A DNA stretch of 64,000 bases from Smithellaceae bacterium (lineage in GTDB: Bacteria; Desulfobacterota; Syntrophia; Syntrophales; Smithellaceae): positions 1,445 through 65,444 of the forward strand of contig JBEKMF010000001.1 in NCBI GenBank assembly GCA_050008655.1, read 5' to 3'. Position 1 is the stretch's first letter. Each line of letters begins with the position of its first letter. Shown here in pieces: positions 3,971 through 40,184 of the stretch. Both the position numbers and the translations under genes were made by a program. The notes beneath the pieces are model-generated. The model had not been told where the DNA came from and ran no database searches. It worked only from the letters and a program-made list of their open reading frames with translations.

Positions 3971-3974
3971 AAAA

Positions 3975-5191: not shown

Positions 5192-5242
5192 AAACCGCAA
5201 TTGCGCCTTATATTTAAAACAATAAAGAAAGGAGAACAAAAT

Positions 5243-9351: not shown

Positions 9352-9380
9352 AACAAAAACTCCTTATGATTATTATCCTC

Positions 9381-9758: not shown

Positions 9759-9767
9759 TAAATGCAG

Positions 9768-9808
9768 TGAGGCCTCCGATTGTTTCTCTGAAAAATGCGG
9801 AGGCCTCA
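9768..9808 (-). terminator. strong hairpin downstream of hup (possible terminator)
   Basis: Perfect 11-bp inverted repeat TGAGGCCTCCG / CGGAGGCCTCA with a 19-nt loop, 25 nt past the hup stop. There is no clear U-run, so it may be a stabiliser rather than a terminator. Confidence 0.4.
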
Positions 9809-9832
9809 GTTGAATAATGACTTAAAAATTTA

Positions 9833-10105
9833 TTACTTACATTTGTCAGCCAGTTCCTTACCGGCCTTGAATTTTACGACTTTCTTCGCAGGAATCTTAA
9901 TGGCCTTACCGGTTTGAGGGTTCCTGCCATCCCTCGCCTTCCTTTTAGCCACAGAAAACGTACCAAATCCTACCAGGCCAATCTTGCCGCCCTTCTTCAG
10001 TTCTTTCGTGACTGCATCAACGTATGCGTCCAGTGCCAATGCTGCTGCTGCCTTGGTAATATCTGCTTCTTTTGCCATAGCATCGACCAAATCTGCTTTT
10101 GTCAT
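9833..10105 (-). CDS. hup: HU family DNA-binding protein
   Basis: 90 aa. Pattern MTKADLVDAMA...GFGTFSV..R.AR.GRNPQTG..I.IPA...V.FKAGKEL. Confidence 0.9.
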   Translation of the reverse strand: MTKADLVDAMAKEADITKAAAALALDAYVDAVTKELKKGGKIGLVGFGTFSVAKRKARDGRNPQTGKAIKIPAKKVVKFKAGKELADKCK

Positions 10106-10544
10106 TCTTGAAATGCCTCCTTTCCTAAGATTAGATATATGAGATTATAATCAACCGCTTTTGCGGCTACAGCTAAGTTTCCGGCACTAAACCTCTATTG
10201 AATCTGTGTTCCCCCTGATAATAACCGGCGTTAAACCTCAAAGTCAGCTTTAAATTCATCGCGCATCTGTCAAATCTGAAATGTTTAACTTTTTCTCAGC
10301 CTGCATGATTACTCATTCGAGAAGGTGTCTTCCCTGCAAACTTGCGCTACGCCTAACACAAAAAAAATCAACAAGCAAGAAAAAAGTAATTCTTTCTCCG
10401 CAACCTCGTACCTCCGATTTTTACCGCTAACTTTTCATGGCTATATTGATCCTACGCACACAATATCGCCGGAAAAATACTGTAGAGCCCTTTGACAAAG
10501 ACGACCCTTTATGTTAGTAAACCGCCGCACAACATCGGCAGCTT

Positions 10545-12734: not shown

Positions 12735-12890
12735 GGCGAACTGAAGGCGGATGGTATCGCAGACACCCGTGGTAAGAGAAAAAATAAAGAACCAATAGAG
12801 TTGTCTTTCCCTGAAATAATAACTACCGATTTTTTTAGACAGATCACAAAAAAAGCGTGTAATACCATTTCGCTTTCAAAAGATTCCAGC

Positions 12891-14946: not shown

Positions 14947-15525
14947 TTACTGCTTAGTTTTAAAGTTATCAAGCGCAATGTTTAGATTCAGCACATGCAC
15001 CCTCTCTTTTCCCCAAATTCCCCAAAAAGGTTTTTCCGTGTTTTGCTGAACGATTTTCTCAATTACGGATTGGGAAATGTTCCTTTCCCTGGCAATACGC
15101 GGCACCTGAAGCAGGGCAGCTTCCGTGCTGATATGCGGATCAAGCCCGGAGGCCGATGCTAAAACCAGATCGGCGGGAATCGATGCATTCTCAGGCAATC
15201 TATTTTCTCGGCGAACCTGCTCAATGCGCGTCCGGACTTGCTCTAACAGCTTGGCGCTGGAAGGCGCCAGATTACTACCGCCGGTATTGCTCGCATCATA
15301 GGGAGGGTCTGTGGCCGACGGGCGGCCGTGAAAGTACTCGGGGCGAGTGAATAATTGTCCGATAAGCTGCGATCCGATGATGACATCGCCGTTTTTAATT
15401 ATGTTGGCATTGGATTGCCGGGGGAATATGGCTTGTGATGCCACCGTAATCACGAGCGGATAAACCAAGCCGCAAATAAGAGATAATCCTGCAAATACCA
15501 AAACAGCACGTTTTAGCTGCTTCAT
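14947..15525 (-). CDS. kdpC: K+-transporting ATPase subunit C
   Basis: 192 aa with an N-terminal TM segment and motifs FHGRPSA and SGLDPHIS. Confidence 0.9.
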   Translation of the reverse strand: MKQLKRAVLVFAGLSLICGLVYPLVITVASQAIFPRQSNANIIKNGDVIIGSQLIGQLFTRPEYFHGRPSATDPPYDASNTGGSNLAPSSAKLLEQVRTRIEQVRRENRLPENASIPADLVLASASGLDPHISTEAALLQVPRIARERNISQSVIEKIVQQNTEKPFWGIWGKERVHVLNLNIALDNFKTKQ

Positions 15526-15536
15526 TGGCGCCTCCT

Positions 15537-17573
15537 TTACACTAGCCTCAATACCGATAATAACATATCGATAAGTTTTATGCCGATAAAAGGCAAGATC
15601 AATCCCCCTATTCCGTAAATCAATAGATTTCGGCGCAGTAAAGCCGATGCGCTGGAAGGATTGTAATGAACACCGCGCAGTGCCAGAGGAATCAAGAGCG
15701 GAATGATGATAGCGTTAAAAATCACCGCCGACAGAACCGCGCTCTGAGGACTGGCCAGATGCATGATATCGAGTATCCGTAACTGAGGATACCCCAGAAT
15801 AAAGATCGCCGGAATGATGGCAAAATATTTAGCGACATCATTAGCAACACTGAAAGTCGTCAACGCCCCGCGGGTAATGAGAATCTGTTTGCCGATTTCA
15901 ACAAGGTCGAGAAGCTTGGTCGGGTTGGAATCGAGATCAACGATGTTGGCCGCTTCTCGGGCTGCCTGCGTGCCGGCATTCATCGCCACGGCCACATCGG
16001 CCTGAGCCAAGGCCGGCGCATCGTTGGTTCCGTCACCGATCATCGCCACCAGATGTCCCATCCCTTGATATCTACGAATGAGTTCCAATTTTGTTACCGG
16101 TCTGGCCTGGGCAACAAAATCATCCACTCCGGCCTCAGCGGCAATGGTAGCCGCCGTTAAGGGATTGTCTCCGGTAATCATAATCGACTTAATCCCCATC
16201 TGCCGCAGTTTGGCAATACGGCCGCTGATGCCTTCTTTGAGAACGTCCTTGAGCCGGATTACGCCGAGGATTTCCCCGTCCTCGGCAACCAAAAGAGGCG
16301 TCGAACCTTCAGTGGAAATATTGGTTACTATTTTTTCAACATCCTCTGCTATGGGCACCCCTTTGACCGCTACAAAATCTTTGATAGCATCCAGAGCTCC
16401 TTTTCTTATCCGGTGGCCGCTCCAGTCAATACCGCTCATCCGCGTCTCCGCACTAAAAGGGGAAAAAACAGCTCCCTCCGGGGCGCGAATATCACTGCCG
16501 CGTATTCCCAGTTTTTCTTTAGCCAAAACAACAATGCTTCTGCCTTCGGGTGTATCGTCGGCAAGCGATGATAAAAGCGCTGCATTGATCAGGTCGGTTT
16601 CTTTTTTCTTATCCAGAGGAACAAATTCTGTCGCCATCCTATTGCCCAGCGTTATCGTGCCGGTTTTATCCATGAGCACAATATCAACATCTCCGGAAGC
16701 TTCCACGGCACGGCCGCTCATCGCTATAAAATTATACTGGAGCAACCTATCCATGCCCGCAATTCCTATGGCCGGCAATAATCCTCCGATAGTGGTGGGC
16801 ATCAGACACACCAGCAGAGCAATCAGCGTCGCCACGGCAACACTAACGCCCATGTAAGCGGCAAAATATTTTAAGGTCACGACAACAACAATGAAGAGGA
16901 CCGTGAGCGCAATTAAAAGCATATTCAGCGCCCGCTCATTGGGAGTCTTCTGTCTTTTGGCGCCCTCGACCATATGAATCATTTGATCGAGGAAGCTTTC
17001 GCCGGGATTGGCGGTAATGCGAACTTTTATTTTCCCCGAAAGCACTCGCGTTCCTCCGGTCACGCCGCTGCGGTCGCCGCCGCATTCTCTGATGACGGGT
17101 GCGGATTCTCCGGTTATGGCCGATTCATCAATAAGCGCGGTCCCCACGGCGACCTCACCGTCTCCGGGAATAGTGTCGCCGTCTTCCAGAAGGACCATGT
17201 CATCTTTTTTCAACTGCAAAGCGGATATTGTTTCCGTGCTGCCGTCATTCAATAATCGTTTAGCTACAGCTTCCGAACGGTTCTTTTTGAGAGAATCGGC
17301 TTGCGCCCGTCCCTGGCCTTCGGCCAGGGCTTCAGCAAAATTGGCAAATATTACAGTAAACCACAACCAGAGAGTGATCTGCAAATCAAAGGCGATACTG
17401 CTGCCGGTAAATATATCATGCAGAACTATGAACGAAGTTACGATGGTAACCATCTCTACAATGAACATCACCGGACTTTGAATCATTCTCACCGGATTTA
17501 GTTTTATGAGCGAATCTTTCAGCGCCGGTAAAATAAACTTCGTCTGCCAGATATTAATTTTTTTCGATTTCAT
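15537..17573 (-). CDS. kdpB: K+-transporting P-type ATPase subunit B
   Basis: DKTGTIT phosphorylation motif, TGDN and [10 protein letters not shown]; 678 aa. Confidence 0.95.
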
Positions 17574-17584
17574 TTTCCTTTACC

Positions 17585-19291
17585 TCAAAACGTTTTGCCG
17601 ATCGCCAGGAGCAGATGTTCCAGAAACGGCCCCAAAGTGAACACCGGGAAATATGTCAGCGCGCCGACAACAATGATTACACTGACCAGCATGACAATAA
17701 AAAGAATACTTGTCGTGGGAAAAGTCGCTACACTTGTCGGAACAATTTTCTTGCCCGCCAGAGCGCCGGCAATCGCCAAAGCCGGAATGATTGTGGAAAA
17801 CCTGCCGACCAGCATGGCCAAAGAAGTAGTAAGATTGTAGAAAATTGTGTTGGCATTTAGTCCGGCAAAGGCAGAGCCGTTATTGCCGGTGGTAGAGGCA
17901 TAAGCATAAATAATTTCGGATAACCCATGCGGCCCGGCATTCCCGAGGCTCGCAAGGCCTAGCGCCGTAGAAATGGCGAGGCTCGATAAGATGAGCAGTA
18001 AAATAGCCGGCGAAAGAATAATCACTACCGCCATAACCATTTCAAAGAGTTCCAGCTTTTTGCCGATTAGCTCCGGAGTCCGGCCGATCATCAATCCGGC
18101 GAGAAACATAGTGATAATGGCATAACCGAGCATGCCGATGAGACCGGTGCCCACGCCGCCGAAGATGACTTCACCAATGGCCATGTTAAACATGAGAACC
18201 AGCCCGCCGAGCGGCATCATACTATCGTGCATGCTGTTGACGGCTCCGCAGGAGGTAACAGTTGTGGACTGAGCAAATAAAACAGAATTGACCACTCCGA
18301 ATCTTACTTCCTTACCTTCCATGTTTATCCCGCTGGCAACTCCTGCTTTTTCCAGTAAGGGATTCCCCCGCGTTTCCGCCCAGGCAAAAAGGCTAAGGCC
18401 CGCAAGATAGAGAATCATCATCGCGGCAAATATTGCCAATCCCTGACGCCGTTTTTTCAACATCGCTCCCAGAGTAAAAGGCAAAGCCGCCGCAATTAAA
18501 AGAAGCCCCAGCACTTCCAAAAAATCAGTCAGCGGTGTCGGGCTCTCGAAGGGATGGGCGGAATTGGCGTTAAAGAATCCGCCTCCATTGGTGCCGATCT
18601 GCTTGATTGCTACCTGGGAAGCCACAGGACCGACAGCAATAACCTGTTTACTTCCTTCCAATGTCTGCGCCTGGACAGAGGGACTCAAAGTTTGAACTGC
18701 TCCCTGCGAAACCAGAAGAATTGACCATATAATCACCAGCGGCAGCAACACATATAAAACACAGCGGGTGAGATCAACCCAGAAGTTGCCGATCGCTGCT
18801 GCTGATTTACGGATGAACCCTCTGATTAAGGCAATGACGGCAACAATGCCAATGGCCGCGGAAGAAAAGTTTTGGAAAGTAAGGCCTAACATCTGGGTCA
18901 AGTAACTCATGGTTTGTTCTCCGCTGTAGGCCTGCCAGTTGGTGTTGGTACCGAAAGAGATAGCGGTATTGAGAGCAGTATCCCAGCGCACAGCGCCGAA
19001 TTTCTGCGGATTGAATGGAAGTATTCCCTGAATAAGCTGCAGAAAGAATAATGCCGCTATGCCGATTACATTAAATACAACCAGAGAGAGGGCATAAGTT
19101 TTCCAGGACATTTCTTCTCCCACATCAACTCTGAACAGCCGATAAAGAAGTCTTTCCACAGGAGCAACAATAGGCGCGAGAAATGAACGCTCGCCGCTGA
19201 ACACCCGAGCCATGTATTCTCCCAAAGGAAAAGCCAATAGCGTTAAGATTAACGGAAATAACGTAATGCATAACCAGTCATTCGTTGTCAT
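17585..19291 (-). CDS. kdpA: K+-transporting ATPase subunit A
   Basis: 568 aa polytopic protein with KdpA selectivity-filter-like motifs (NTNWQAYSGE, GTNGGGFF, TSCGAVNSMHDS, NNGSAFAG). Confidence 0.95.
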   Translation of the reverse strand: MTTNDWLCITLFPLILTLLAFPLGEYMARVFSGERSFLAPIVAPVERLLYRLFRVDVGEEMSWKTYALSLVVFNVIGIAALFFLQLIQGILPFNPQKFGAVRWDTALNTAISFGTNTNWQAYSGEQTMSYLTQMLGLTFQNFSSAAIGIVAVIALIRGFIRKSAAAIGNFWVDLTRCVLYVLLPLVIIWSILLVSQGAVQTLSPSVQAQTLEGSKQVIAVGPVASQVAIKQIGTNGGGFFNANSAHPFESPTPLTDFLEVLGLLLIAAALPFTLGAMLKKRRQGLAIFAAMMILYLAGLSLFAWAETRGNPLLEKAGVASGINMEGKEVRFGVVNSVLFAQSTTVTSCGAVNSMHDSMMPLGGLVLMFNMAIGEVIFGGVGTGLIGMLGYAIITMFLAGLMIGRTPELIGKKLELFEMVMAVVIILSPAILLLILSSLAISTALGLASLGNAGPHGLSEIIYAYASTTGNNGSAFAGLNANTIFYNLTTSLAMLVGRFSTIIPALAIAGALAGKKIVPTSVATFPTTSILFIVMLVSVIIVVGALTYFPVFTLGPFLEHLLLAIGKTF

Positions 19292-19530
19292 TTCAACCTC
19301 CTTTTGTTTTCCCCATTCTCCAACGTATCAAAAAATAACGAAACAACACGGCCAATCAAGCCCTGGAGTGCCATGGATAAAAATTAAAACAATCATGAAG
19401 CGTTTGATAAGAAGACAAATCAATAAAAATCATTGGAAAGCTAAAGACAAGCGGGCACAGTGATTCCCCATTTTCAGCAAAAGACAATCGCCGTAGAAGA
19501 ATTGATGAAAAAAGAACAGTCATTTTTTTA

Positions 19531-19660
19531 TCCTCCCATACGCCGACGAGGTTAGCTGACGGGCTCGGACATGGAAGTGTCCTCTTCTTCACTCGCTAAG
19601 AAATTCGCCCCAAACTACCCGGTTCCCCCGTATCCACACTATATATGGATTTAGGCATTG
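19531..19660 (-). promoter_or_regulatory. c-di-AMP riboswitch-like leader (ydaO/kimA class) upstream of the kdp operon
   Basis: The minus strand reads CCUAAAUCC...GGAUACGGGGGAACCGGGUAGUUUGGGGCGAAUU...CCGAGCCCGUCAGCUAACCUCGUCGGCGUAUGGGAGG. This matches, from memory, the pseudo-twofold ydaO core blocks (ACGGxGGAACC, UUGGGGUxAAUC, ACCCGxCAGCUAACxxCGxxGGC). An SD (GGGAGG) follows directly. Confidence 0.65.
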
Positions 19661-19958
19661 TTAAAAAACATTGTCGAGCTAGCTATGCCCTTTTTAAATG
19701 ACTGTCAAGCAATATTTGCCATACATTTTTGTATTATTTCTTCATCCTTTTTGAGTAAAAGGGAGGAATTCAATCCGTAATAAACACAATTGAAGTTCTT
19801 CGCGTCAAGCCACTGAGAATCTTCGATTCTTAGGGGGCCATATTAGTCGGTATTCACTCGCTTACCCGCAGCAAGCTACAGGGAATGCGCTTGCTGTCGA
19901 ATTCACACCCGGCAACAAACATCGACACTACACCCCATATTTTGCGGTCAATATTCCA

Positions 19959-21079: not shown

Positions 21080-21150
21080 GTACATACGTTGAGGAAGCCG
21101 ACGACGATGCCAACAAAGATAGCATTTTGATTTAGAATTGGAATAAAGCA
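21080..21150 (+). repeat. family-2 repeat, copy a (degenerate)
   Basis: ACGTTGAGGAAGCCGACGACGATGCCAACAAAGATAGC, nearly identical to copies at 30367-30450 and 62314-62407. It lies 14 nt beyond the mltA stop. Confidence 0.8.
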
Positions 21151-22797: not shown

Positions 22798-24509
22798 TTT
22801 CCTCTCCCGCCCGAATTACTGGAATTTGATATTTTGGAACCATCGAGCATCTCGCGGGCGTGCTTACGTGTAGTCTGGGTTACATCCACTCCGCCCAGCA
22901 TCCGGCTTATTTCTTCAATCTTTTGTTCCTCATCGAGTTTGGTGACGGCGGTGGTTGTCCGGCCCTTTATGATCTTTTTGGAAACATACAAATGATCTTC
23001 GCCAAAACAAGCAATTTGCGGCAAATGGGTGATACAAATAATCTGATGATTGGCGGACACCTCTTTTAATTTGCGGCCGACAATTTCCGCCGTTGCTCCG
23101 CCGATGCCGTTATCCACTTCATCAAAAATAATCGTCGCCACGGAGCCGGTGCGCGACAAAACATTTTTCAGCGCCAGAACTATACGCGATAATTCACCGC
23201 CGGAGGCAATCTTGTTTAGGGGCTTGGGCTCTTCTCCGGCATTAGCCGTCAGATAAAACTCTATTTCATCGCCGCCTTTTGGTCCGAAAGATTCGACATT
23301 TTTATCAGCGGCGTTTTTTTTAAAGTTAGCCTCAAAGGAGGCATGGGGCATATTTAACTCATGAATTTCCTTATCCACGGCATCTTTCAGCTTCGCCGCT
23401 GCCTGGCCTCTGAGTTGAGAAAGATCGAGCGCTTTTTGGCGCAAATTATTTTTTGCGGCTGTTTCTTCTCTACTCAGATTTTCCAACTCTTCTTCCACGG
23501 AAAAAACCCGGCGCAATTCTTCTTCTATTTCTTGTTTTTTGTTAAGAACACTTTCGAGAGATCCGCCGTGTTTGCGTTTAAGCCGGCCCAGCATTTCGAG
23601 ACGTTCGTCAATAGTCGCCAGCCTCTCCGGATCGAAGAAAAGATTTTTACTGTAATCGCGCAGAACCAAAGCCGCTTCCTGGAGTGTAATAAAACTGCCT
23701 TCAATATCCGCAGGGACAAGCTTCAAATTCGCATCAATATTTTTGATTTCTTTTACCTGATTTTGAACTTCTTTCAACTTAACGACGGCGGAATCCTTCT
23801 CGCCGTAGAGCAAATCATAAGCGTGGTTGGCCCAGTCCATGAGCTTTTGCGCGTTAACGAGAACTTTTTTTTCATCGGAGAGTGTTGTGTCTTCCTTCGG
23901 CTGTGGATTAATATCCTGAATTTCCTTTAGCTGAAATTTGAACAAATCTGCTTTTTCTTCGCGGCTGCGGCGCAAATTTTCCATTTTTTCTATTTTAGTT
24001 CTGATTTGCGTATATTGATTATACGCCTCGGCATAGGAAGTCCGGAGAGGAAGACAGCCACCGAATTCATCCAGTATATCTATATGATTTTCGGCATTGA
24101 GAATTATCTGATGTTCATGCTGGCCGCAGATATTAATCAGCGATTCGCTGATGGCGGACAAATTAGCCAAAGTTGCCATTTGACCGTTGATGAGCGCCTT
24201 ATTTTTGCCGGTACGCGAAATAATCCTACGGATTATCAGCTCTTCACTGTCGGCAAAACCCATGGCTGCGATTTTCTCCCTGAGCTCACTATTCCCGGCA
24301 ACTTTAAAGAGCGCTTCCACTGTTGCCGCATCCGCCTGCGATCTGATCAAATCCGCTGTCGCTCTATCGCCTAAGAGTAAACTTACCGCGCCGATAATAA
24401 TCGACTTTCCGGCACCGGTTTCTCCGGAGATAACATTCAGCCCTTCACCAAAGGAAACGTGGAGTTCATCAATGATGGCGAAGTTTTTAATGCTCAGGTC
24501 ATTAAGCAT
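22791..24509 (-). CDS. recN: DNA repair protein RecN
   Basis: N-terminal Walker A (GETGAGKSIII), a long coiled coil, and C-terminal SGGELSRI and IFDEVD motifs. Confidence 0.95.
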   Translation of the reverse strand: MLNDLSIKNFAIIDELHVSFGEGLNVISGETGAGKSIIIGAVSLLLGDRATADLIRSQADAATVEALFKVAGNSELREKIAAMGFADSEELIIRRIISRTGKNKALINGQMATLANLSAISESLINICGQHEHQIILNAENHIDILDEFGGCLPLRTSYAEAYNQYTQIRTKIEKMENLRRSREEKADLFKFQLKEIQDINPQPKEDTTLSDEKKVLVNAQKLMDWANHAYDLLYGEKDSAVVKLKEVQNQVKEIKNIDANLKLVPADIEGSFITLQEAALVLRDYSKNLFFDPERLATIDERLEMLGRLKRKHGGSLESVLNKKQEIEEELRRVFSVEEELENLSREETAAKNNLRQKALDLSQLRGQAAAKLKDAVDKEIHELNMPHASFEANFKKNAADKNVESFGPKGGDEIEFYLTANAGEEPKPLNKIASGGELSRIVLALKNVLSRTGSVATIIFDEVDNGIGGATAEIVGRKLKEVSANHQIICITHLPQIACFGEDHLYVSKKIIKGRTTTAVTKLDEEQKIEEISRMLGGVDVTQTTRKHAREMLDGSKISNSSNSGGRGKC

Positions 24510-25443
24510 TTTCCCTTTTCCCAGCTCCTGAAGGTAAACCGCCCCAGCCTAGTTTGGAACGTAATATTTCCCAGTAACTGCGATGTGGCGAAAGAACCAA
24601 CTTAGTCACATATTTTGATTTTTTTATAGTCACAACATCTCCGGACTCGATTTGGTAGGATTCCTGTCCGTCCAAAGTCAAAGTGGCACCCCTTCCTTTG
24701 GACCATAGTGTTATTTTCAAATTCGAATCCTGCGGAAAAATAATCGGGCGGTTAGTCAAAGTGTGAGGGCAGATGGGATTAATAATTATCAAGTCTTTTG
24801 CGGGAAAGACAATCGGGCCACCCGCCGAAAGCGAATAGGCCGTGGAACCGGTAGGCGTCGAAATAATCAGACCGTCTCCCTTGTAAGTCGTCAGGTACTC
24901 ATCATTAACCGATGTTTCCAGTTCAGTAATGCGGGATAGATTGCCGCGATTGATGACCACATCATTCAACACGTCGCCTACATCAGCGATAGTGTTGCCG
25001 TGCTTGACGGCTACGGTGAGCATCATTCTTTTTTCCGCTGCAAATTTGCCGCCCAGAATCACTTCCAGCGCCGAATGCATTTCGTTTAAATTGACTTCGG
25101 TGAGATAGCCGAAACTACCCATATTGATTCCCAGAATAGGAACACCATATCTCGCCACAGCGCGCGCTGCACGGAGCATCGTTCCATCACCGCCTAAAAC
25201 AATAAGCAGTTGAGATTTTCGCGCCAGCTCATCCCATTTAAGTCCGCCACCGATGCCGGCTTTAGCGGCTATTTGAGCTTCCAGGAAAACTTCATTGTCT
25301 TTTTCTTCCAGCCACTCCTTTAGAGATTTGGCGTGCCGGGCTATTTTTACTTTTTCTATATTGGCAACAATACCGACTTTCTTGATTTTCAGTGGAGCCA
25401 CCTCCAACAGGAGCCTGAAGCTCCTTATAATAATGAGACCCAA
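24502..25443 (-). CDS. nadK: NAD kinase
   Basis: Motifs GGDGTML, NxGxLGFL-like (NMGSFGYL) and TPTGSTAYSLSAGGPI. The listed TTG start at 25443 lies inside repeat locus 3. The true start is probably further in (TTG 25407, or later near LKIKKVGIVAN). Confidence 0.85.
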   Translation of the reverse strand: MGLIIIRSFRLLLEVAPLKIKKVGIVANIEKVKIARHAKSLKEWLEEKDNEVFLEAQIAAKAGIGGGLKWDELARKSQLLIVLGGDGTMLRAARAVARYGVPILGINMGSFGYLTEVNLNEMHSALEVILGGKFAAEKRMMLTVAVKHGNTIADVGDVLNDVVINRGNLSRITELETSVNDEYLTTYKGDGLIISTPTGSTAYSLSAGGPIVFPAKDLIIINPICPHTLTNRPIIFPQDSNLKITLWSKGRGATLTLDGQESYQIESGDVVTIKKSKYVTKLVLSPHRSYWEILRSKLGWGGLPSGAGKRENA

Positions 25444-25672
25444 ACTTCAGAAATAAAGTGCATAACCTAATAACCTGAGGGTCACAAGAGGTCACGTCAC
25501 CACTCAAGCTTGCAGGTCGAATGAATGAAACTCAAATATTACAAACGCAGTGCAGTAATATTTGTAAGTTGAATGCATCCCGCAAAGCAGATGATAAAGC
25601 GACCTCCCGCGGATTACCGCGCATTTCTACTTTGGCCAGAGCCGGGGAATTCCAAATCGCGGGATCGATTGC
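25410..25672 (-). repeat. family-1 modular intergenic repeat, locus 3 (mostly reverse orientation)
   Basis: The reverse complement of 25431-25525 aligns base-for-base with the long unit at 27683-27775 (ATTCGACCTGCAAGCTT...GTGACGTGACCTCTTGTGACCCTCAGGTTATTAGGTTATGCAC...CTGAAGTTTGGGTCTCATTA). Additional alpha-like hairpins occur at 25640-25672. Confidence 0.85.
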
Positions 25673-27581: not shown

Positions 27582-27647
27582 ATCCTAAGAATCAATTTTC
27601 CGACCGGCAAAAATATACATGGCAGGCAAACTGACTAAGTATCTTTC

Positions 27648-28048
27648 AATCACGGGTATCTACGATACTCTCCGCCTTCGCGGGATAATTCGACTGCAAG
27701 CTTCAGCATGTGTGACCTCTTGTGACCTTCAGGTTATTAGGTTATGCACTCTGCTTCCGAAGCCTGTGTCTCATTACAACTTACTAATTTTCCCACATTC
27801 GTTATGAAAATTGGAGTTTCACGAACCACGGGTATGAATCCCAAAGCAAGCTGGGGATATTAGTATTGCCCCGCTAAGCTTCGCACGCGGGATAACCCCA
27901 GTAGCCTTTGCTATAGGATTAATTCAGCTAACAGATATTACAAGCGCAGCGCAGTAATATCTGAGTTTCATAAATTCGACTTGCAAGCTTCGGCGGTGAC
28001 GTGACCTCTAGGTTATGCACTCTGTTTCTGAAGCTTGAGTCTCATTAC
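27648..28048 (+). repeat. family-1 modular intergenic repeat, locus 4 (about 4 units, best-preserved copies)
   Basis: It starts CACGGGTATCTACGATACTCTCCGCCTTCGCGGGATAATTCGACTGCAAGCTTCAG, followed by the nested stem GTGACCT..GTGACCT..AGGTTAT..AGGTTAT and then CCGAAGCCTGTGTCTCATTA. A second full unit spans 27975-28048 and ends in GAGTCTCATTA. Confidence 0.9.
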
Positions 28049-28833
28049 GGCTGGATATTATTTTTTGCGGTTCTGCTTTTTTCTTGCCGGGCTTTTTTTA
28101 ATTTTTCTTCCTCAGCCTTTTTCAACTTCTCTTCTTCGGCAATTTTCGCTTTGGTTTCATTAATAAAATATTCTACCTTATAATCAAGTCCGACGTTCGC
28201 ATAATCTCGCACTATTGTTTCAAAACGCGCAAGAGCGGCCTGATATTTTTTCTGCTTGAAATAAAAATGCCCCACATAAAATTCTGCTTCTGCCAGTTTC
28301 TGCTTGCAGTCGTAAATCAACTTCTCGGCCATTATGGCAAATTTACTATCAGGGTGACGGGAGACAAGCTTTTCGAATTCTTTTTTTGCTTTAATTGCCG
28401 ATGTCTGATCGCGATCGATTGCATCTATTTGGTTGTAATGACACATACCTATTTGGTAGATGGCATAAGGAACATTCTCGTTAGTAGGATGAAGAGTGAT
28501 AAAATCGTTGTACGCATTTTCCGCTTCCATGTATTCCTTGTCACTATAATGGCAATCGGCTATTCCTATTTCCGCTAAAATAGCCAGATTATGCAGGGGA
28601 TATTCTTCTTTAACCCTCATAAAATATTCCCGGGCTTTTTTATAATCGTTATAATAATTGCTTTTCTGAAATTCGGCAGCTCCGCGCGAGTAAAGCCATT
28701 CCGGAGTATTCTTGGCCGTTTCTTTCTTGCTAAATATATCCAATAAAGAACAACCGCTAATGGAACATAATATCAATAAAATAATTATAAATATTTTCCA
28801 ATTCAATGTTTCCCGCAATCTTTTTAAATACAT
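28045..28833 (-). CDS. bamD: outer membrane protein assembly factor BamD (TPR lipoprotein)
   Basis: Lipoprotein signal (ILCSISGCS), TPR-like repeats and a Lys/Glu-rich C-terminal tail (EEEKLKKA x2). The stop codon is the TTA of the repeat tail CTCATTA. Confidence 0.8.
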   Translation of the reverse strand: MYLKRLRETLNWKIFIIILLILCSISGCSLLDIFSKKETAKNTPEWLYSRGAAEFQKSNYYNDYKKAREYFMRVKEEYPLHNLAILAEIGIADCHYSDKEYMEAENAYNDFITLHPTNENVPYAIYQIGMCHYNQIDAIDRDQTSAIKAKKEFEKLVSRHPDSKFAIMAEKLIYDCKQKLAEAEFYVGHFYFKQKKYQAALARFETIVRDYANVGLDYKVEYFINETKAKIAEEEKLKKAEEEKLKKARQEKSRTAKNNIQP

Positions 28834-30219: not shown

Positions 30220-30366
30220 AAACGACTTTGAATTATCAAGCGGTAATCCACAGGAAATTATACTAATGCCAAGTCGCCTTCAAGAGGATATCGCGACGGC
30301 AGTGAAACTCGAATTACAGTCACGCAGAAACTGGAATTCGTTAGTTGAACTGTCCCGCTTCAGTGG

Positions 30367-30450
30367 GGCAAGGAAGAGGCGACGCAGGCGTATAGTAAGG
30401 AGCCGATGACGATGCCAACAAAGATAGCCGAAGGAGGGCGGATTGGTATC
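30367..30450 (+). repeat. family-2 repeat, copy b
   Basis: GGCAAGGAAGAGGCGACGCAGGCGTATAGTAAGGAGCCGATGACGATGCCAACAAAGATAGCCGAAGGAGGGCGGATTGGTATC. Its last bases overlap the stop codon of the 30449 gene. Confidence 0.85.
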
Positions 30451-30883
30451 AAAAAGCTCCCAGTTGACAAGGCTTAATCTTTATTTGCATTGCTTCGCAG
30501 GCGGCGGAAACCTTCATGCGGGGAATATTAAACTTCTCGGCAATTTCCCAAGCGATGCTACAGGGAAGACAACCGTTTTTCAAGGCCGCTAAAATATTTT
30601 TTTTCAGAACCGGCGCGATTTCTTTGACGGGCTGCACAATTTTTTTATGCGGGCTATGACCAAAAAGACCCAATTGACATTCGATAATCTTGATATTTAA
30701 AATGTCAATGGTAATACCGATATTGTTTTGAGCTATTCCTTTTCGTCGGGCAATTTCTTCCGCGGCCGCGCAGGAAATATCATTCGCCTCGACATTCTGC
30801 AGAATCTCCTGTTTTAAAGAATCATCAACTTTGGCCTTACCAGGGTGTTTTTGAAAATATTTGTCTTGATCCAAGTGGGTCAT
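30449..30883 (-). CDS. hypothetical protein with two tandem about 60-aa repeats each ending in CQLG(L/A)F
   Basis: The internal duplication is ISCAAAEEIARRKGI...IKIIECQLGLFG versus LPCSIAWEIAEKFNI...IKIKPCQLGAF. It is the last gene of the paaK-ACT operon. Confidence 0.5.
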   Translation of the reverse strand: MTHLDQDKYFQKHPGKAKVDDSLKQEILQNVEANDISCAAAEEIARRKGIAQNNIGITIDILNIKIIECQLGLFGHSPHKKIVQPVKEIAPVLKKNILAALKNGCLPCSIAWEIAEKFNIPRMKVSAACEAMQIKIKPCQLGAF

Positions 30884-34465: not shown

Positions 34466-36838
34466 ATGAACGACGCAAACCGCACCCGCTCTTCCAAGGG
34501 GCTTCTGTTCGGTCTGTTCGCCATCGCCACGGGCGCCGTGGTACTTGTAGGTTGGCTGTTTGACATCCCCAGCCTGAAGAGTGTACTGCCGGGGTTCGTG
34601 ACCATGAAGGCCAACACCGCCGTGGGCTTCGTACTCGCGGGGTTGTCGCTGGCGCTGTTGGGATGCGCGGCCCGCTTTGTGTGGGTGCGGCAGTTGTCGC
34701 GAGTGTGCGCGTGCGCCACGGCGCTGCTGGGCCTCCTCACCCTCAGTCAGTATCTCTTCGGCGTGGACTTCGGCATTGACCAACTGCTCTTCCGAGAAGC
34801 GGCTGGCGCCGTGGGTACGCTGTCCTCAGGCCGCATGGCCCCCGTGACAGCGGTCAATTTCCTCCTGTTGGGTTGCGCGCTCTTCCCCGCAGGCTTCCGC
34901 CGTACCATCCCCGCCGCGCAACGTCTGGTCCTAGTTACGGGACTCATGGGTATGCTGTCTCTGATGGGGTACGCATACGGCGCAACTGAGCTTTTTGGCA
35001 TCGGCACCTACACGCAGATGGCCATCCACACGGCCGTGCTCTTTATCCTCCTGAGCCTGGGGGTGCTGTTACTGCATCCGGCGGACGGCTTTATGCGAAC
35101 AGTCACCAGCGATACCGTTGGCGGCTGGCTACTGCGGCGTTTGGCGCCGTTCGTAGTGGGGATTCCGCTGGTCCTCGGGTGGTTGAGGGTGCAGGGCGAA
35201 CAGAGGGGCATCTTCAATGGTCCATTTGGCGTGGCCTTAATGATGATGGTCATGATGCTCATTCTGACGGGCCTGATCTGGTGGACAGCCCATGCACTGA
35301 ACCGGCTCGGCACCGTCCGCCGGCAAGAAGATGCAGCCCGCGAATACGCCGAGAGCATCATCAACACCGTACGTGAACCCTTAATTGCTCTGGATCAAGA
35401 TTTAAGGGTAGTCACGGTCAGCCGCTCCTTCTATGAAGTCTTTAAGGTTAAACCTGAAGAGACCGTGGGACAGCTTATTTATGACCTGGGCAATAAACAG
35501 TGGGATATTCCCAAGCTGCGCGAACTGCTGGAAACCGTCCTTCCCCAAAAGGCGACTTTTGATAATTATGAGGTGGAACACGATTTTGCGACCATCGGCA
35601 GGCGCATAATGCTTTTGAATGCCCGGCAAATTAAAAGAGTATTGGGAAAAGAACGGATCATCCTCCTGGCCATCGAGGATATAACCGAGCGCAGGGAGAT
35701 AGAAATTGGGCTAGAAAAGACCCGAAAAGAACTGGAGATTATTAAAAAAACCGCAGATGAAGCCAGTGAATTCGCCGAGAGCATCATCAACACCGTGCGT
35801 GAACCTTTAATTTCTTTGGATCAAGACCTCAGGGTGGTCACGGTCAGTCGCTCCTTCTATGAAGTCTTTAAGGTAAAACCTGAAGAGACCGTGGGACAAC
35901 TTATTTATGACCTGGGCAATAAACAGTGGGATATCCCCAAGCTGCGGGAACTGCTGGAAACCATCCTTCCCCAAAAGGCAACCTTTGATAACTATGAAGT
36001 GGAACACGATTTTGCAACCATTGGCAGGCGCATAATGCTTTTGAATGCCCGGCAAATTCAAAGAGTATTGGGAAAAGAACGGATCATCCTTCTGGCCATC
36101 GAGGACATCACCGAGAAAAAGATGCTGGAAAGAGGGGTGGTGAAGGCAAGGGATGTTGCTGAAGCTGCCAACAAGGAACTGGAGACATTCAGCTATTCTG
36201 TTTCCCATGATTTACGGGCGCCGCTGCGGGGCATAGACGGATTCAGCCAGGCGCTCCTGGATGATTATAGCGACAAACTTGATGCCACGGGGAAAAATTA
36301 CCTGGAGCGCATCCGCGCGGGTACACAGCGCATGGGATTGCTGATCGATGATATGCTGAAACTTTCGCGGATAACCCGGGCTGAATTTAACTATGAATCC
36401 ATCGACTTGAGTAAAATGGTCCGGACAATTGCAGATGCATTTCAGAAAAATAATCCTGATAAGACCCGCAAGGTGACCATCCAGAAGGGTCTCATCATCC
36501 AAGGTGACTCTCACTCCATGCAGATTGCTTTGATGAACCTGATAGATAATGCCTGGAAGTTCACCGGCAAACAAAAACATGCCCGGATTGAATTCGGCAC
36601 GACTCTCCAGGAGGGGAAAATGGTCTTTTTTGTTCGAGATAACGGCGTCGGATTTGACATGTCCTATGTGGGCAAACTATTCGGCGCGTTCCAGCGTCTT
36701 CATACGATGGATGAATTTGCGGGAACGGGAATAGGCCTGGCAACTGTACAGCGAATCATCCACCGTCACGGGGGGAAAATCTGGGCGGAGGGCGAAGTTG
36801 GGAAAGGGGCAACCTTCTTCTTCACGCTGCCAGCGTGA
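34466..36838 (+). CDS. sensor histidine kinase: multi-TM N-domain, 2 x PAS, HisKA, HATPase_c
   Basis: About 290 aa of hydrophobic N-domain, two near-identical PAS modules, H-box (SYSVSHDLRAPLR), N box (DNAWKF), G1 (DNGVGF) and G2 (GTGIGLA). Confidence 0.9.
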   Translation: MNDANRTRSSKGLLFGLFAIATGAVVLVGWLFDIPSLKSVLPGFVTMKANTAVGFVLAGLSLALLGCAARFVWVRQLSRVCACATALLGLLTLSQYLFGVDFGIDQLLFREAAGAVGTLSSGRMAPVTAVNFLLLGCALFPAGFRRTIPAAQRLVLVTGLMGMLSLMGYAYGATELFGIGTYTQMAIHTAVLFILLSLGVLLLHPADGFMRTVTSDTVGGWLLRRLAPFVVGIPLVLGWLRVQGEQRGIFNGPFGVALMMMVMMLILTGLIWWTAHALNRLGTVRRQEDAAREYAESIINTVREPLIALDQDLRVVTVSRSFYEVFKVKPEETVGQLIYDLGNKQWDIPKLRELLETVLPQKATFDNYEVEHDFATIGRRIMLLNARQIKRVLGKERIILLAIEDITERREIEIGLEKTRKELEIIKKTADEASEFAESIINTVREPLISLDQDLRVVTVSRSFYEVFKVKPEETVGQLIYDLGNKQWDIPKLRELLETILPQKATFDNYEVEHDFATIGRRIMLLNARQIQRVLGKERIILLAIEDITEKKMLERGVVKARDVAEAANKELETFSYSVSHDLRAPLRGIDGFSQALLDDYSDKLDATGKNYLERIRAGTQRMGLLIDDMLKLSRITRAEFNYESIDLSKMVRTIADAFQKNNPDKTRKVTIQKGLIIQGDSHSMQIALMNLIDNAWKFTGKQKHARIEFGTTLQEGKMVFFVRDNGVGFDMSYVGKLFGAFQRLHTMDEFAGTGIGLATVQRIIHRHGGKIWAEGEVGKGATFFFTLPA
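35348..36115 (+). repeat. in-frame tandem duplication of a PAS module (2 x 342 nt, period 426 nt)
   Basis: 35348-35689 and 35774-36115 differ at about 24 of 342 positions by hand alignment. Most differences are third-codon-position changes, with only 4 amino-acid changes. Confidence 0.9.
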
Positions 36839-36895: not shown

Positions 36896-37270
36896 ATGGA
36901 AAAGGAAAACGGTAAGATAAAAAATTTCAGAGATCTGGATGTGCGGAAACTAGGTATGGAAATAGTCTTCGATTTTTATAAATATACAAAATCATTCCCC
37001 AAAGAAGAAGTATACGGTTTGGTAAGTCAAATGAGAAGAGCGGCTTTGTCGATTGCTTCCAATATCGCCGAAGGATTCAACCGTTACCATAATAAAGAGT
37101 ATCGTCAATTTTTATATGTTGCTCTCGGATCATGCGCCGAACTGGAAACGCAAATCGAGGTTAGTTTGCTTTTGGGATATATTACGCAATCCGCAAGATA
37201 TAAAATAATTGAGAAACTCGATTATGAATCGCGGATGTTGAGAAACTTGATAAAGCGCCTGAATGCGTAA
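36896..37270 (+). CDS. four-helix-bundle protein (23S rRNA intervening-sequence protein / Avd family)
   Basis: 124 aa with the family pattern F.DL.V...........Y....FPKEE.YGL.SQ.RRAA.SI.SNIAEG..R....E...FL..A.GS..E..T. Confidence 0.85.
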   Translation: MEKENGKIKNFRDLDVRKLGMEIVFDFYKYTKSFPKEEVYGLVSQMRRAALSIASNIAEGFNRYHNKEYRQFLYVALGSCAELETQIEVSLLLGYITQSARYKIIEKLDYESRMLRNLIKRLNA

Positions 37271-37777: not shown

Positions 37778-37852
37778 TTCGTGAAGCGTTGTTCGTGAAG
37801 CGTATCTCGCTCTTCACGCTTCACGAGATGCGAGATACAAAAGGAATTTATA
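37778..37852 (+). promoter_or_regulatory. structured leader element J3
   Basis: 2 x CGTGAAGCG, GTATCTCGC, CTTCACGCTTCACG, CGAGAT-GCGAGATAC, then AAAAGGAATTTATAATG. There are several mutually exclusive 6-9 bp pairings. Confidence 0.75.
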
Positions 37853-40099
37853 ATGGCAAAAAAAGTTTTATCTGCACCAAGCAAGCTGAAACCTAAAATT
37901 AGCAAGCCGCAATTACTCCGGGTATTGGTAGTTGAAGATTCGGAAGACGATGCTCTGCTGATAATTCGTGAACTGAAAAAAGGCGGTTACAATCCGGTGT
38001 ATGAACGGATGGAAACAGCACCAGCGATGAAAAAAGCCCTCAGCCAGAAGCCCTGGGACATCATCCTTTGCGATTATAAACTGCCGAAATTCAATGCGCC
38101 CTCAGCCATTACCGTATTAAAAGAAACAAATATCGACATCCCTCTCATCATTGTATCCGGCACTATCGGTGAAGAGACGGCTGTAGAGTGTATGCGCTCG
38201 GGCGCCAAAGATTATGTCATGAAGAGTAACTTATCGCGTCTGTGCCCCGCCATTAAAAGAGAATTAGAAGAGGCAAAAACAAGAGTCCAACGCAAGCGGG
38301 CAGAAGAGGCGCTGCAGGTGAGCGAGGAGAAATATCGTGCCATTATTGAGAACATGCAGGAGGGTTATTTTGAACTTGACCTTGCCGGTAATTTTACCTT
38401 CGTTAATGACGCTGAGTGTATAAATCTGAGATATCCTCGAGAAGAACTGATCGGAATGAACAACAGGCAGTATCAAGATGAAACAAACGCTCAAAAAATG
38501 TATCAACTCTTCAGAGAGCTTTACAGAACAGGTGAACCGGTTAAGGCATTAGATGTTGAAATTATCAGAAAAAACGGGACGAAAGGTTTTAACGAAATTT
38601 CTGTATCTCTTGTCCGGGATGCAGAAGGTAAACCGATCGGATTTTGGGGTGTTTCTCGGGATGTCACCGAGCGCAAGCAGGCCGAGCAGGCGCTACGAGA
38701 GAGCGAAGCCCAGTATCGGCTGCTGGCCGACAACATGCAAGACCAAGTATGGCTCATGGACCTGAACTTAAAACCGACATACATCAGCCCATCTGTTGAG
38801 AAGATACGGGGATACACATTTGAAGAGATTGCGCAACTTCCGCTGGATAAGCAACTCACGGCAACATCCTTACAGTCGGCGATGGAGTTTTTCTCCATTG
38901 AGATGCCCAAGGCGCTGGCAGATCCAACCTATTTCGCGCTTCCACTGGAACTAGAGTTCTACTGTAAAGACGGCTCAACTCTATGGGTGGAAAGCACGTT
39001 TAGTCAAGTCCGGGACGAAAATGGTAAGCCGTTATCCCTACTGGGCGTCGGTAGAGACATCACCGAGCGCAAGCGAACGGAGGAAGCACTGCATAAAAGC
39101 GAACATCTACATAGAGTTATCACAAATAACATTCGGGACACCGTAGCGCTGCTGGACATTAATTTTCGCGCAACATGGATCAATCCGTCAGTAACCAAAA
39201 CACTAGGATTTACTCTGGACGAACTTGCCCAAGTCCCTCTGGAGCGGCAAGTAACGCCGGATTCTATGCAGCGTATGCAGGATCTCATGCTGGAGCATCT
39301 TACAGCAGAAAATTTGACCGATAAAAACAAGGAACTTAATGTCACCGGCGAGTTTGAATTTTACCGGAAAAACGGCGATATTTTCTGGGATGAGATGAAT
39401 ATATCGCTTCTGCGGGATACAGATGGAAAGCCCACCGGCTTTCTGACGGTAGGCCGCGACATCACCGAACGCAAACGAGCGGAGGAAGAACGTAAGCAGA
39501 GCTTTGAGCGGATGAGAAAAGCTCTGAGAGCCACGGTTCAAGCCATCTCTCTGACTGTGGAAATGAAAGATCCCTATACTTCGGGTCATCAACGGCGAGT
39601 ATCCGATCTGGCCCGGGCGATAGCGACAGAAATGGGCTTATCGGCAGACCGGCGGGACTTTATCCGCACTGCCGCCACTATTCATGACATCGGTAAAATA
39701 GCCATTCCATCGGAGATACTCAGTAAACCGACAAAACTGACTGATCTGGAATTCAGTTTGATTAAAACACACGCCCAGGCAGGCTATGATATCCTGAAAG
39801 ATATCGAATTTCCCTGGCCCGTGGCCGATGTCGTCCTTCAGCATCATGAACGGATGGATGGATCCGGCTATCCTCAGGGCCTCAAGGGAGCTAATATTCT
39901 TCTGGAGGCACGGATTCTGGCCATCGCCGACGTTGTGGAAGCCATCGCTTCCCACCGTCCCTATCGTCCGGCATTTGGAATTGATATTGCCTTGAAGGAG
40001 ATTTCCGATAATAAGGGTATCCTTTATGATGCAGTTGCCGTGGATGCCTGTCTGAAATTATTTCGAGAGAAAGGCTACGGCTTGGTTTTAAAAAAGTAG
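37853..40099 (+). CDS. response regulator with REC, about 4 PAS domains and an HD-GYP (c-di-GMP phosphodiesterase-type) domain
   Basis: REC (VVEDSEDD, LCDYKLPK), repeated PAS-end signatures (GVSRDVTERK, GVGRDITERK), and HD-GYP motifs (HDIGKI, HHERMDGSGYPQGL). Confidence 0.9.
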   Translation: MAKKVLSAPSKLKPKISKPQLLRVLVVEDSEDDALLIIRELKKGGYNPVYERMETAPAMKKALSQKPWDIILCDYKLPKFNAPSAITVLKETNIDIPLIIVSGTIGEETAVECMRSGAKDYVMKSNLSRLCPAIKRELEEAKTRVQRKRAEEALQVSEEKYRAIIENMQEGYFELDLAGNFTFVNDAECINLRYPREELIGMNNRQYQDETNAQKMYQLFRELYRTGEPVKALDVEIIRKNGTKGFNEISVSLVRDAEGKPIGFWGVSRDVTERKQAEQALRESEAQYRLLADNMQDQVWLMDLNLKPTYISPSVEKIRGYTFEEIAQLPLDKQLTATSLQSAMEFFSIEMPKALADPTYFALPLELEFYCKDGSTLWVESTFSQVRDENGKPLSLLGVGRDITERKRTEEALHKSEHLHRVITNNIRDTVALLDINFRATWINPSVTKTLGFTLDELAQVPLERQVTPDSMQRMQDLMLEHLTAENLTDKNKELNVTGEFEFYRKNGDIFWDEMNISLLRDTDGKPTGFLTVGRDITERKRAEEERKQSFERMRKALRATVQAISLTVEMKDPYTSGHQRRVSDLARAIATEMGLSADRRDFIRTAATIHDIGKIAIPSEILSKPTKLTDLEFSLIKTHAQAGYDILKDIEFPWPVADVVLQHHERMDGSGYPQGLKGANILLEARILAIADVVEAIASHRPYRPAFGIDIALKEISDNKGILYDAVAVDACLKLFREKGYGLVLKK

Positions 40100-40184
40100 C
40101 TGACGGTGGCCGGTGAAGCGTCGTTCGTGAAGCGTATCTTGTGCTTCACGCTTTACAAGATGTTAGATACAAAAGGAATTTATA
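40100..40184 (+). promoter_or_regulatory. structured leader element J4 (paralogous to J3)
   Basis: GGTGAAGCG-tcgtt-CGTGAAGCG-TATCTTG-tg-CTTCACG-cttta-CAAGAT-GTTAGATAC-AAAAGGAATTTATAATG. It carries a compensatory change relative to J3 (TCTCG/CGAGA becomes TCTTG/CAAGA). Confidence 0.75.

Follow-up and report, generated by a model that had tools for sequence, protein, structure and literature searches.

We describe a family of small, hairpin-rich, non-coding repeats in a 64,000-nt stretch of the genome of a Smithellaceae bacterium (hereafter the window; coordinates are window positions unless a comparison locus is named). The family forms seven intergenic clusters that together account for ∼1.5 kb (2.4%) of the window, as judged from a covariance model of its terminal hairpin (model R1) and inspection of the sequence. 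We consider it fairly probable that these clusters consist of Smithellaceae-specific (order Syntrophales), non-autonomous mobile repeats that are defined by their structure and are moved as folded single-stranded DNA by an enzyme acting in trans. Family identity is set by the folded structure more than by the sequence. Elements are gained or lost at orthologous sites and insert into their own kind in a fixed relative orientation, and their orientation is indifferent to the direction of genes and of replication.

A complete element comprises ∼103-135 nt (typically ∼112 nt) and is composed of a leader (AAYCAC), a start hairpin (S), one or more copies of a second hairpin (H1), and a terminal hairpin (H2), which directly abut one another. 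The S hairpin reads GGGTAT...ATACCC and often encloses two inner hairpins with CAAG loops. H1 is a short hairpin of varied sequence that immediately precedes H2 in 200 of 236 cases. The terminal hairpin H2 comprises 59 nt and is an imperfect palindrome of the form TAAT-TC-GACY-NN-[10 bp]-loop-[10 bp]-RGTC-TC-ATTA. From its foot, it is organized into helix P0 (4 bp), a 2x2 internal loop of TC against TC, helix P1 (4 bp), a 2-nt bulge in the 5' arm, helix P2 (10 bp), and a 12-nt loop in which two further pairs close a triloop. Elements of the ATTA-tailed form end flush with P0, and those of the TTTCAC-tailed form carry an additional semi-conserved WWAA (usually TAAA). The initial annotation of the window had described several of these modules, and they are present at all five loci that it listed, but the start module (AAYCAC plus GGGTAT...ATACCC) had been missed. 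It had also taken GGATAATTCGAC and GRGTCTCATTA for conserved single-stranded linkers. Because TAAT pairs with ATTA and GACY with RGTC across H2, both are in fact paired stems.

The initial annotation had pointed to structure-preserving covariation as the property to look for, and it is strong in the H2 stems. In the 83 units that form the seed of R1, 95.7% of cells are paired in the structure ...((((..((((((((((...((...))..))))))))))))))......, double changes occur in 13 of the 16 pairs, and none of 500 shuffles matched the observed values. Among 156 distinct units, the pair between columns 7 and 42, which joins GACY to RGTC and was not used in choosing the seed, is CG in 59 and TA in 90, and an inner pair (columns 23 and 29) is AT in 88 and GC in 57. 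The TC/TC internal loop is invariant in at least 149 of the 156 units, and the 2-nt bulge in the 5' arm stays unchanged in >150 copies while the stems covary. P0, formed by the 4 nt before the 5' TC and the 4 nt after the 3' TC, is 89-98% Watson-Crick and occurs as TAAT/ATTA, CAAT/ATTG, TTGT/ACAA, TAGT/ACTA, and CAGT/ACTG, with no pairing from the fifth base on. One type of S plus H1 is joined to differing types of H2, whose P0 and P1 covary. The three hairpins were also recovered independently by RNAalifold from 16 copies (107-112 nt) that had been fetched via the S module only; the prediction contains 38 pairs, 10 of them with double changes.

A mini-hairpin (GTGACCT-NN-AGGTTAT, 16-21 nt) is an optional insert of the loop and is at times nested in itself. 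This inner stem with its two G.T pairs, noted in the initial annotation, is real and recurrent. The two G.T pairs never turned into Watson-Crick pairs, and nine copies show the compensatory form GTGCCCT/AGGGTAT (A-T to C-G). The mini-hairpin has the orientation of its host unit in 55 of 57 cases. Its fixed polarity and the invariant G.T pairs establish a fixed polarity of the element and are no demonstration of RNA action.

The extent of the element is defined by four orthologous pairs of filled and empty sites (L002/L025, L017/L108, L102/L064, and window 12671-12773/L105; L numbers label comparison loci outside the window). In these pairs, the insert starts with AAYCAC/YCAC and finishes with TCAYNA; its termini are not inverted, and there is no duplication of ≥4 nt, although an A-rich target duplication of 2-3 nt may be present in two of the four. 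The left flanks read GCCT(TAA), GAG, GAAA, and CTCT(TA). In logos of 166 5' ends and 274 3' ends, information begins at AA-YCAC (A 0.81, A 0.95) and extends through P0, where it stops, in the ATTA type, and through ACAA and the subsequent WWAA, mostly TAAA, in the TTTCAC type. Terminal inverted repeats are absent, the 5' end (AAYCACGGGTAT) not being complementary to the 3' end (...TCAYNA(TAAA)). Duplication of flanking k-mers (2-5 nt) never exceeded the shuffle expectation in 45 complete copies, and target duplication is therefore not detectable. A 2-nt AA target duplication is unsupported by the same flank test. A shared 2-nt crossover core (AA at both junctions) was likewise rejected, as the left and right dinucleotides mismatch within copies and the right one pairs internally.

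Orthologous sites differ in the units that they hold. Upstream of trpS, four species (represented by window cluster 2, L105, L011, and L028) possess differing sets of units. The site of window cluster 4 is occupied in L031, L001, L019, L024, L063, and L090, the latter five of which hold fewer units. In L105, a whole H1 plus H2 unit is located inside the loop of the orthologue of window 9691-9741, and a composite with one unit in the 3' arm of another hairpin is widespread (window example 9550-9631). The units are intergenic; 35 apparent overlaps with open reading frames (ORFs) concern ORF ends or short, probably spurious ORFs. At one site, the last ∼20 codons and the stop codon of a radical-SAM/SPASM gene (11475-12734, plus strand) come from an element on the opposite strand (cluster 3, 12671-12773, minus strand), and the end of the protein differs in L105, in which the site is empty, and in L011, in which it holds a different chain.

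Units are uniformly oriented in 60 of 61 multi-unit clusters, and the spacing of successive H2 units is exact, with a register of 49 nt (TCATTA followed by CGAC) or 52 nt (TCATTAATT followed by CGAC). The sole palindromic double-tail arrangement found is a single H2 hairpin at L096 2024-2075 with inverted tails on both sides (TAATGAGACC...GGTCTCATTA). With respect to transcription, 43 clusters in co-directional gaps are sense and 37 antisense to the flanking genes, and the window holds two of each. Local GC skew over 8 kb, a proxy for replication direction that in 59 of 77 loci agrees with the strand of most genes, does not separate orientations either: loci of positive skew contain 23 plus and 31 minus clusters, those of negative skew 23 plus and 28 minus clusters.

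Within the window, the 8-mer GTCTCATT occurs in eight exact copies versus 1.8 expected, a number reached in none of 100 shuffles. All eight copies fall within the five loci of the initial annotation, which self-BLAST of the window links to one another. Variants with one mismatch, which had been counted along with the exact copies, are at chance level as a class (47 window-wide versus 49.6 expected), so that only variants within the loci are informative. Model R1 added two loci (12671-12773 and 30300-30368, both on the minus strand) and further units within known loci (5139-5189 and 27775-27824). The five loci thus stand, whereas their total of 1.4 kb has to be raised to the seven clusters and ∼1.5 kb given above. 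Also upheld is the description as a modular, hairpin-rich, head-to-tail chained intergenic family of the repetitive extragenic palindrome/bacterial interspersed mosaic element (REP/BIME) type. S start modules lie at 5099, 9384, 12771, 27651, and 27827, and the density is one cluster per 9 kb. The seven clusters are as follows.

Cluster 1, 4962-5191, plus strand: gap between an unassigned gene (3936-4952, plus) and a sodB-like gene (5234-5836, plus), sense to both. Two elements are arranged head to tail; the first is without an S module and has its H2 domain at ∼5027-5096, and the second has the leader ACCAC (5098-5102), followed by the S hairpin, H1 (5118-5135), and H2 (5136-5191). R1 scores are 33 bits (5030-5094) and 26.6 bits (5139-5189).

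Cluster 2, 9381-9758, plus strand: gap between a trpS/tyrS-like gene (8362-9351, minus) and the terminator of an HU-like gene (9833-10105, minus), therefore antisense to local transcription. It contains an S start (9382-9384), several H1 hairpins, and three H2 units, with the nested unit at 9550-9631 placed inside a hairpin of the ACGCTTCAA...TTTTCAGCG type. R1 scores are 49.8 bits (9465-9515), 67 bits (9579-9629), and 64.4 bits (9691-9741).

Cluster 3, 12671-12773, minus strand, newly found: a single element, complete and minimal at 103 nt (ACCAC-S-H1-H2-TCACGA), located where the radical-SAM/SPASM gene (11475-12734, plus) and kdpD (12891-14918, minus) converge. The R1 score is 52.3 bits (12671-12721).

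Cluster 4, 25431-25672, minus strand: divergent gap upstream of the NAD kinase gene (24502-25443, minus), sense to this gene. It is composed of H1-type hairpins and two H2 units, the 3' one of which (25431-25521) carries a nested double GTGACCT...AGGTTAT mini-hairpin. R1 scores are 60.7 bits (25523-25573) and 27.2 bits (25431-25486).

Cluster 5, 27648-28047, plus strand: gap between a DUF374/acyltransferase gene (minus) and bamD/yfiO (28045-28833, minus), therefore antisense. Element 5a (27648-27824) reads AATCAC-S-H1-H2 with a nested double mini-hairpin and the tail GTCTCATTA ending at 27776, followed by a second H2 unit that ends with TTTCACGA at 27824. Element 5b (27825-28047) reads ACCAC-S-two H1-H2-H2 with the tail GAGTCTCATTA. 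R1 matches 27775-27824, 27923-27973, and 27978-28042.

Cluster 6, 30300-30368, minus strand, newly found: H1 plus H2 (CAGT-TC-AACT...AGTT-TC-ACTG), located where a PNP/UDP phosphorylase gene (plus) and an ORF at 30449-30883 (minus) converge. The R1 score is 31 bits (30300-30349), and P0 is CAGT/ACTG, another compensatory variant of the basal helix.

Cluster 7, 52831-52932, minus strand: one H1 plus an H2 unit into which a single mini-hairpin is inserted, directly upstream of an ORF with Fer4 domains (51787-52809, minus) and downstream of an ORF with a CCG domain (52956-53804, minus), sense to both. The R1 score is 26.7 bits (52831-52878).

Outside the window, a scan for the tail pattern GAARYTTGRGTCTCATTA in one genome per species returned at least 118 loci, nearly all from metagenome-assembled genomes (MAGs) of Smithella, Smithellaceae, or 'Syntrophaceae' (Thermodesulfobacteriota; Syntrophia; Syntrophales; Smithellaceae). 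R1 matches 233 H2 units in these loci and at least 14 in the window, from 34 assemblies, and a metagenome scan with the S module added at least 120 further contigs. The family occurs in hundreds of copies, both in >30 genomes of Smithella/Smithellaceae and in metagenomes from peat and digesters. The cluster density elsewhere, a rough estimate from related genomes, is about one per 16 kb, and contigs frequently end inside elements. Matches in Vibrio, Gemmatimonadota, Akkermansiaceae, and Flavobacteriales are due to chance, as are four matches on viral contigs; none of them has a hairpin context. Genuine high-scoring units were also observed on two non-Smithella bins (L075, binned as Aminicenantes, and L095, binned as an 'archaeon'), for which mis-binning is more likely than horizontal transfer. 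At the gathering threshold, Rfam matched only a c-di-AMP riboswitch in the whole window and nothing at the repeat loci, and at E≤5 the regions 27600-28100 and 9340-9820 gave no relevant match and no ribozyme or intron signature. The family matches no named family, and the initial annotation had recognized none either; it is described nowhere in the searched literature, for Smithella and Syntrophus included.

In the interpretation that we favor, the element would be recognized and moved as a folded single DNA strand by an enzyme that reads structure and has its gene elsewhere in the genome. This could be a Y1/HUH transposase of the kind found in the insertion sequence (IS) families IS200/IS605 and among REP-associated tyrosine transposases (RAYTs), or a tyrosine recombinase of the attC type. 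In IS608, the cleavage site is made up of the last 4 nt of the IS and is bound by base pairing to a 4-nt guide located 5' of the hairpin foot, and insertion produces no target duplication (PMC3201880). The Smithellaceae element has a similar layout: its final 4 nt pair with the 4 nt that lie just 5' of the right-end hairpin, and this pairing covaries between subfamilies. P0 may act as a pairing of guide and cleavage site that defines the right end, as in IS608. Resident copies would serve as preferred, strand-specific landing sites, which would result in head-to-tail chains and nested copies. Effects on host genes, e.g. through hairpins in untranslated regions or the exchange of a C-terminal tail at 12671-12734, appear to be incidental.

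Several observations weigh against this interpretation, and the first set concerns the enzyme. No transposase, recombinase, or integrase was found among the scanned ORFs of the window (the scan left out 55906-60333, 60689-61288, and 61358-61885). A tblastn search with IS200, IS608, and Escherichia coli RAYT proteins gave no convincing Y1/RAYT match in 0.95 Mb around elements; weak matches in L115, L089, and L067 sit in ordinary metabolic genes. No RAYT-like match was obtained in the combined 0.95 Mb and 0.70 Mb around elements either, a sample in which a single gene per genome would easily be missed. Among 860 ORFs neighboring elements, only paralogues of AMP-binding, TPR, and TetR type recur in several copies. 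One metagenome contig (L207) has near its end, at 10136-10181 (plus strand) and 10288-10410 (minus strand), a truncated IS200-type TnpA with the right-end hairpin CCACCGACAAGGTCGGTGG ∼100 nt from a diverged S module. Its 55 relatives in the protein collection, however, are all C-terminal remnants of 45-88 amino acids, and in the contexts of one of them (P0004) a 5'-truncated remnant stands beside glycosyltransferase genes with no modules of the family. We rejected this TnpA as a partner, since it is represented by fragments only and has no demonstrable link to the family.

Further points against the favored interpretation concern age, strand, and target. Copies within a genome are 78-91% identical (median 84%; best 94% over 161 nt) and therefore show no sign of recent activity. 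The cues for the strand that folds conflict with each other. GCTTCGC, a frequent loop, is complementary to GCGAAGC, which forms a DNA mini-hairpin of unusual stability, and TC/TC becomes tandem G.A on the bottom strand; both features hint at the bottom strand, as does a weak preference in DNA folding energy (33 of 49, p=0.014), whereas the G.T pairs of the mini-hairpin point to the top strand. IS608 inserts 3' of a fixed tetranucleotide, whereas the left flanks of the family share at most NA/AA, and it inserts into the lagging-strand template, whereas the orientation of the family is unrelated to GC skew. Finally, P0 is an ordinary antiparallel helix and possibly just the base of the hairpin, whereas the pairing in IS608 mixes canonical and non-canonical interactions (PMC3201880).

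It is possible, although rather unlikely, that the family represents an undescribed structure-guided single-stranded DNA element with a right end set by an internal 4-bp guide-like helix beside the invariant TC/TC (GA/GA) loop, which lands preferentially beside or inside its own kind and depends on an enzyme other than a RAYT or a classical IS200/IS605 TnpA. One candidate would then be a structure-reading recombinase that acts at attC-like hairpins across hundreds of chromosomal sites.

Alternatively, the elements might have spread long ago and now be immobile DNA structural sites that are maintained by the host for binding of a nucleoid protein, gyrase, or polymerase, or for insulation of transcription units, as proposed for the REP/BIME sequences of E. 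coli. The persistence of structure is consistent with such a role: old copies (median within-genome identity of 84%) are still ∼95% paired, and a function independent of orientation fits the 43:37 split. Seven pairs of orthologous units, one of which (L028 4065-4115 versus window 12671-12721) is a different unit type at the same site, differ in 20 base pairs, of which eight show compensatory double changes, seven are pair-breaking, and five are of the G.U type. This test is small, and pair-breaking changes are about as many as compensatory ones. Moreover, detection with a structure model favors well-paired copies, and intrastrand repair in palindromes can create 'compensatory' changes in the absence of selection, as is known from quasi-palindrome mutagenesis. 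Unit type and number also differ between orthologous sites, and turnover therefore continues. We regard host maintenance without mobility as unlikely.

The initial annotation had instead favored a strand-specific role at the level of RNA, in which transcribed units would act as mRNA stabilizers, processing sites, or protein-binding small RNAs, with a polarity set by G-U pairs and asymmetric loops. Strong covariation of the kind seen in RNA families would agree with this, and so would the two retained G.T pairs of GTGACCT/AGGTTAT with their nine copies of the A-T to C-G exchange, and the location of many copies immediately upstream of a ribosome-binding site or just ahead of a terminator. However, sense and antisense copies are nearly balanced (43:37, and 2:2 in the window). 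The non-Watson-Crick pairs of the H2 stem comprise 50 G.T and 53 A.C, so that neither strand is favored, and RNA folding energies do not differ between the strands (p=0.26). With its random orientation toward transcription and GC skew and its symmetric wobbles, the family does not support a strand-specific RNA role. In addition, the unit possesses no promoter or terminator of its own, as information stops at the element ends, no Rfam match was obtained at the two loci even at E≤5, and variable occupancy of orthologous sites, like nesting, is characteristic of mobile DNA. An RNA family is thus very unlikely.

About equally improbable is that H2 or the whole element is a MITE (miniature inverted-repeat transposable element), i.e. 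a deletion derivative of an IS with a DDE transposase that moved as double-stranded DNA via inverted repeats and target duplication. In favor of this, copies are numerous, small, and intergenic, the H2 arms (TAATTCGACY.../...RGTCTCATTA) resemble short inverted repeats, and the A-rich flanks leave room for a duplication of 2-3 nt in two of the four filled/empty pairs. The complete element, however, possesses neither terminal inverted repeats (AAYCACGGGTAT versus TCAYNA) nor a target-site duplication of ≥4 nt, the features by which the initial annotation would have recognized a MITE, and flank duplication in the 45 copies is not above that in shuffles. Although the stems covary, >150 copies retain in these arms the TC/TC mismatch and a bulge on one side only, the 60 co-oriented clusters among 61 are not expected from double-stranded transposition, and no DDE transposase was found near any copy.

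Spread via an RNA intermediate, i.e. transcription, reverse transcription, and insertion in the manner of a short interspersed nuclear element by a group II intron or retron-type reverse transcriptase, could account for the exact boundaries without inverted repeats, the A-rich 3' end of one subfamily (ACAATAAA), and the polarity of insertion relative to resident hairpins, but it is extremely unlikely, given that no reverse transcriptase was seen in the scanned window ORFs or near copies, target duplications of variable length and poly-A tails are missing, and the element has no promoter of its own and no ribozyme or intron signature in the Rfam scans.

The family is not the only repeat in these genomes, the intergenic regions of which hold several repeat families. 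A second, unrelated repeat of ∼40-100 nt (GAGGAAGCYGAYGACGAWGCCAACAAAGWTAGC...) is found in the window at 21084-21123, 30401-30450, and 62347-62407 and also in L080 (34-100) and L032 (81-196). In the window, it is located just 3' of the stop codons of three minus-strand genes (a mltA-like gene, ORF 30449-30883, and a sigma-54 activator gene), and it has no Rfam match at the gathering threshold. Further types of hairpin repeat outside the model, e.g. ACCCTCCTTTGCTAAAGGAGGGTAGGGAGGATTTTA... and CCCCGAAGCTTGCTTCGC..., are present in L020 (5040-5300) and L079 (∼7380-7430).

The window also has features of other kinds. The c-di-AMP (ydaO-type) riboswitch (19526-19667, minus strand; 89.5 bits) lies directly upstream of kdpA (17585-19291, minus), which is followed by kdpB (15537-17573), kdpC (14947-15525), and kdpD (12891-14918), and the arrangement therefore represents a riboswitch-controlled operon for the Kdp potassium pump. 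A gene for a PAS histidine kinase contains a tandem internal duplication (35329-36115; 92% identity over 361 nt). Next to it, the region 37781-43844 holds two adjacent paralogous response-regulator/PAS/HD-GYP genes (37853-40099 and 40185-43883) with stretches of 74-82% identity and internal PAS repeats. Between sensor-kinase and response-regulator genes, a gene of the '23S rRNA-intervening sequence protein' family (PF05635) is located at 36896-37270 on the plus strand.

Small structured repeats make up a sizeable and poorly understood share of many bacterial genomes, and outside enterobacteria and pseudomonads most repeat families lack a known mobilizing enzyme or host role. The family described here is informative because its ends are exact and its architecture is resolved pair by pair through natural covariation. 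Its invariant unpaired features are candidate protein contacts, and its nested and chained copies record rules of insertion. The elements also break MAG assemblies and alter gene ends. A covariance model of the unit would aid annotation and assembly of Smithella, a key syntrophic degrader of alkanes and propionate.

Among known systems, the prevailing view of REPs is that an HUH enzyme, encoded once per genome and usually at a distance from most copies, acts on them as single-stranded hairpins. The family shares with REPs, BIMEs, and REPINs (REP doublets forming hairpins) the organization into mosaic clusters of short palindromic hairpins that are intergenic and numerous and are joined by recurrent types of linker, and like them it is lineage-specific, persists vertically, and keeps its structure while the sequence drifts. 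A GTAG or CGTC tetranucleotide at one end of the palindrome is characteristic of the REP/RAYT system (PMC3733652). In contrast, neither tetranucleotide is found at the hairpin feet of the family on either strand, which read TTC-GAC (H2), TCCGC (H1), and CAC-GGGTAT (S). BIMEs and REPINs combine REPs in alternating or inverted orientation (PMC2817692, PMC3337134), whereas the clusters of the family are co-oriented. Furthermore, a REP is a single palindrome of 20-40 bp, whereas the unit of the family is a composite of three hairpins with defined 5' and 3' ends.

The ends of IS200/IS605 elements and of their derivatives without an ORF, the palindrome-associated transposable elements (PATEs), likewise lack terminal inverted repeats and target duplication and carry subterminal hairpins at both ends. 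IS200/IS605 elements also share the strand polarity and offer a route to head-to-tail arrays if the 3' end of an element itself resembles the target. In contrast to IS200/IS605, the left and right hairpins of the family are dissimilar, and no intact TnpA is linked to it.

The attC sites of integrons are recombined as a folded single-strand hairpin with an R box, an unpaired spacer, an L box, extrahelical bases, and a variable tip (PMC5027507). H2 follows the same order of features (P0, TC/TC, P1, 2-nt bulge, P2, and variable tip), but with a spacer of 2 nt versus 5-6 nt in attC. The two are similar in size (attC, 57-141 nt) and are imperfect palindromes in which structure is conserved over sequence, and both form co-oriented arrays without target duplication; clusters of attC that lack an integrase were included in this comparison. 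In the TTTCAC type, the 5' arm reads GTTCAAC where attC has its inverse core (RYYYAAC), but the 3' arm reads GTTTCAC. Whereas the attC core is AAC/GTT, the main subfamily has GAC/GTC (TTCGAC/GTCTCA), and whereas attC crosses over between G and TT, the boundaries of the family lie after P0. Its units abut at 49 or 52 nt with no cassettes or ORFs between them and no integrase nearby, and its copies are distributed over hundreds of unrelated sites instead of a single array.

In overall design, the family is also comparable to the pneumococcal BOX repeats, which Croucher and colleagues reportedly described in 2011 as modular boxA-boxB(n)-boxC repeats with ends said to be inverted-repeat-like. Both are non-coding, and in both a fixed start module is followed by middle modules, arranged head to tail and variable in number, and then by an end module; strong folding, an intergenic location, confinement to one lineage, and an unclear mode of mobilization are further traits in common. 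The family differs from BOX in sequence, in its unrelated host phylum, and in its ends, which are not inverted-repeat-like, and we know of no description of units nested inside hairpins for BOX. The family resembles REP/BIME, the ends of IS200/IS605 elements, and attC, yet lacks defining features of each. If its enzyme were identified, it could constitute a second natural case, beside attC/IntI and IS608, of hairpin-programmed DNA recombination, a process that is relevant to genome-engineering tools.

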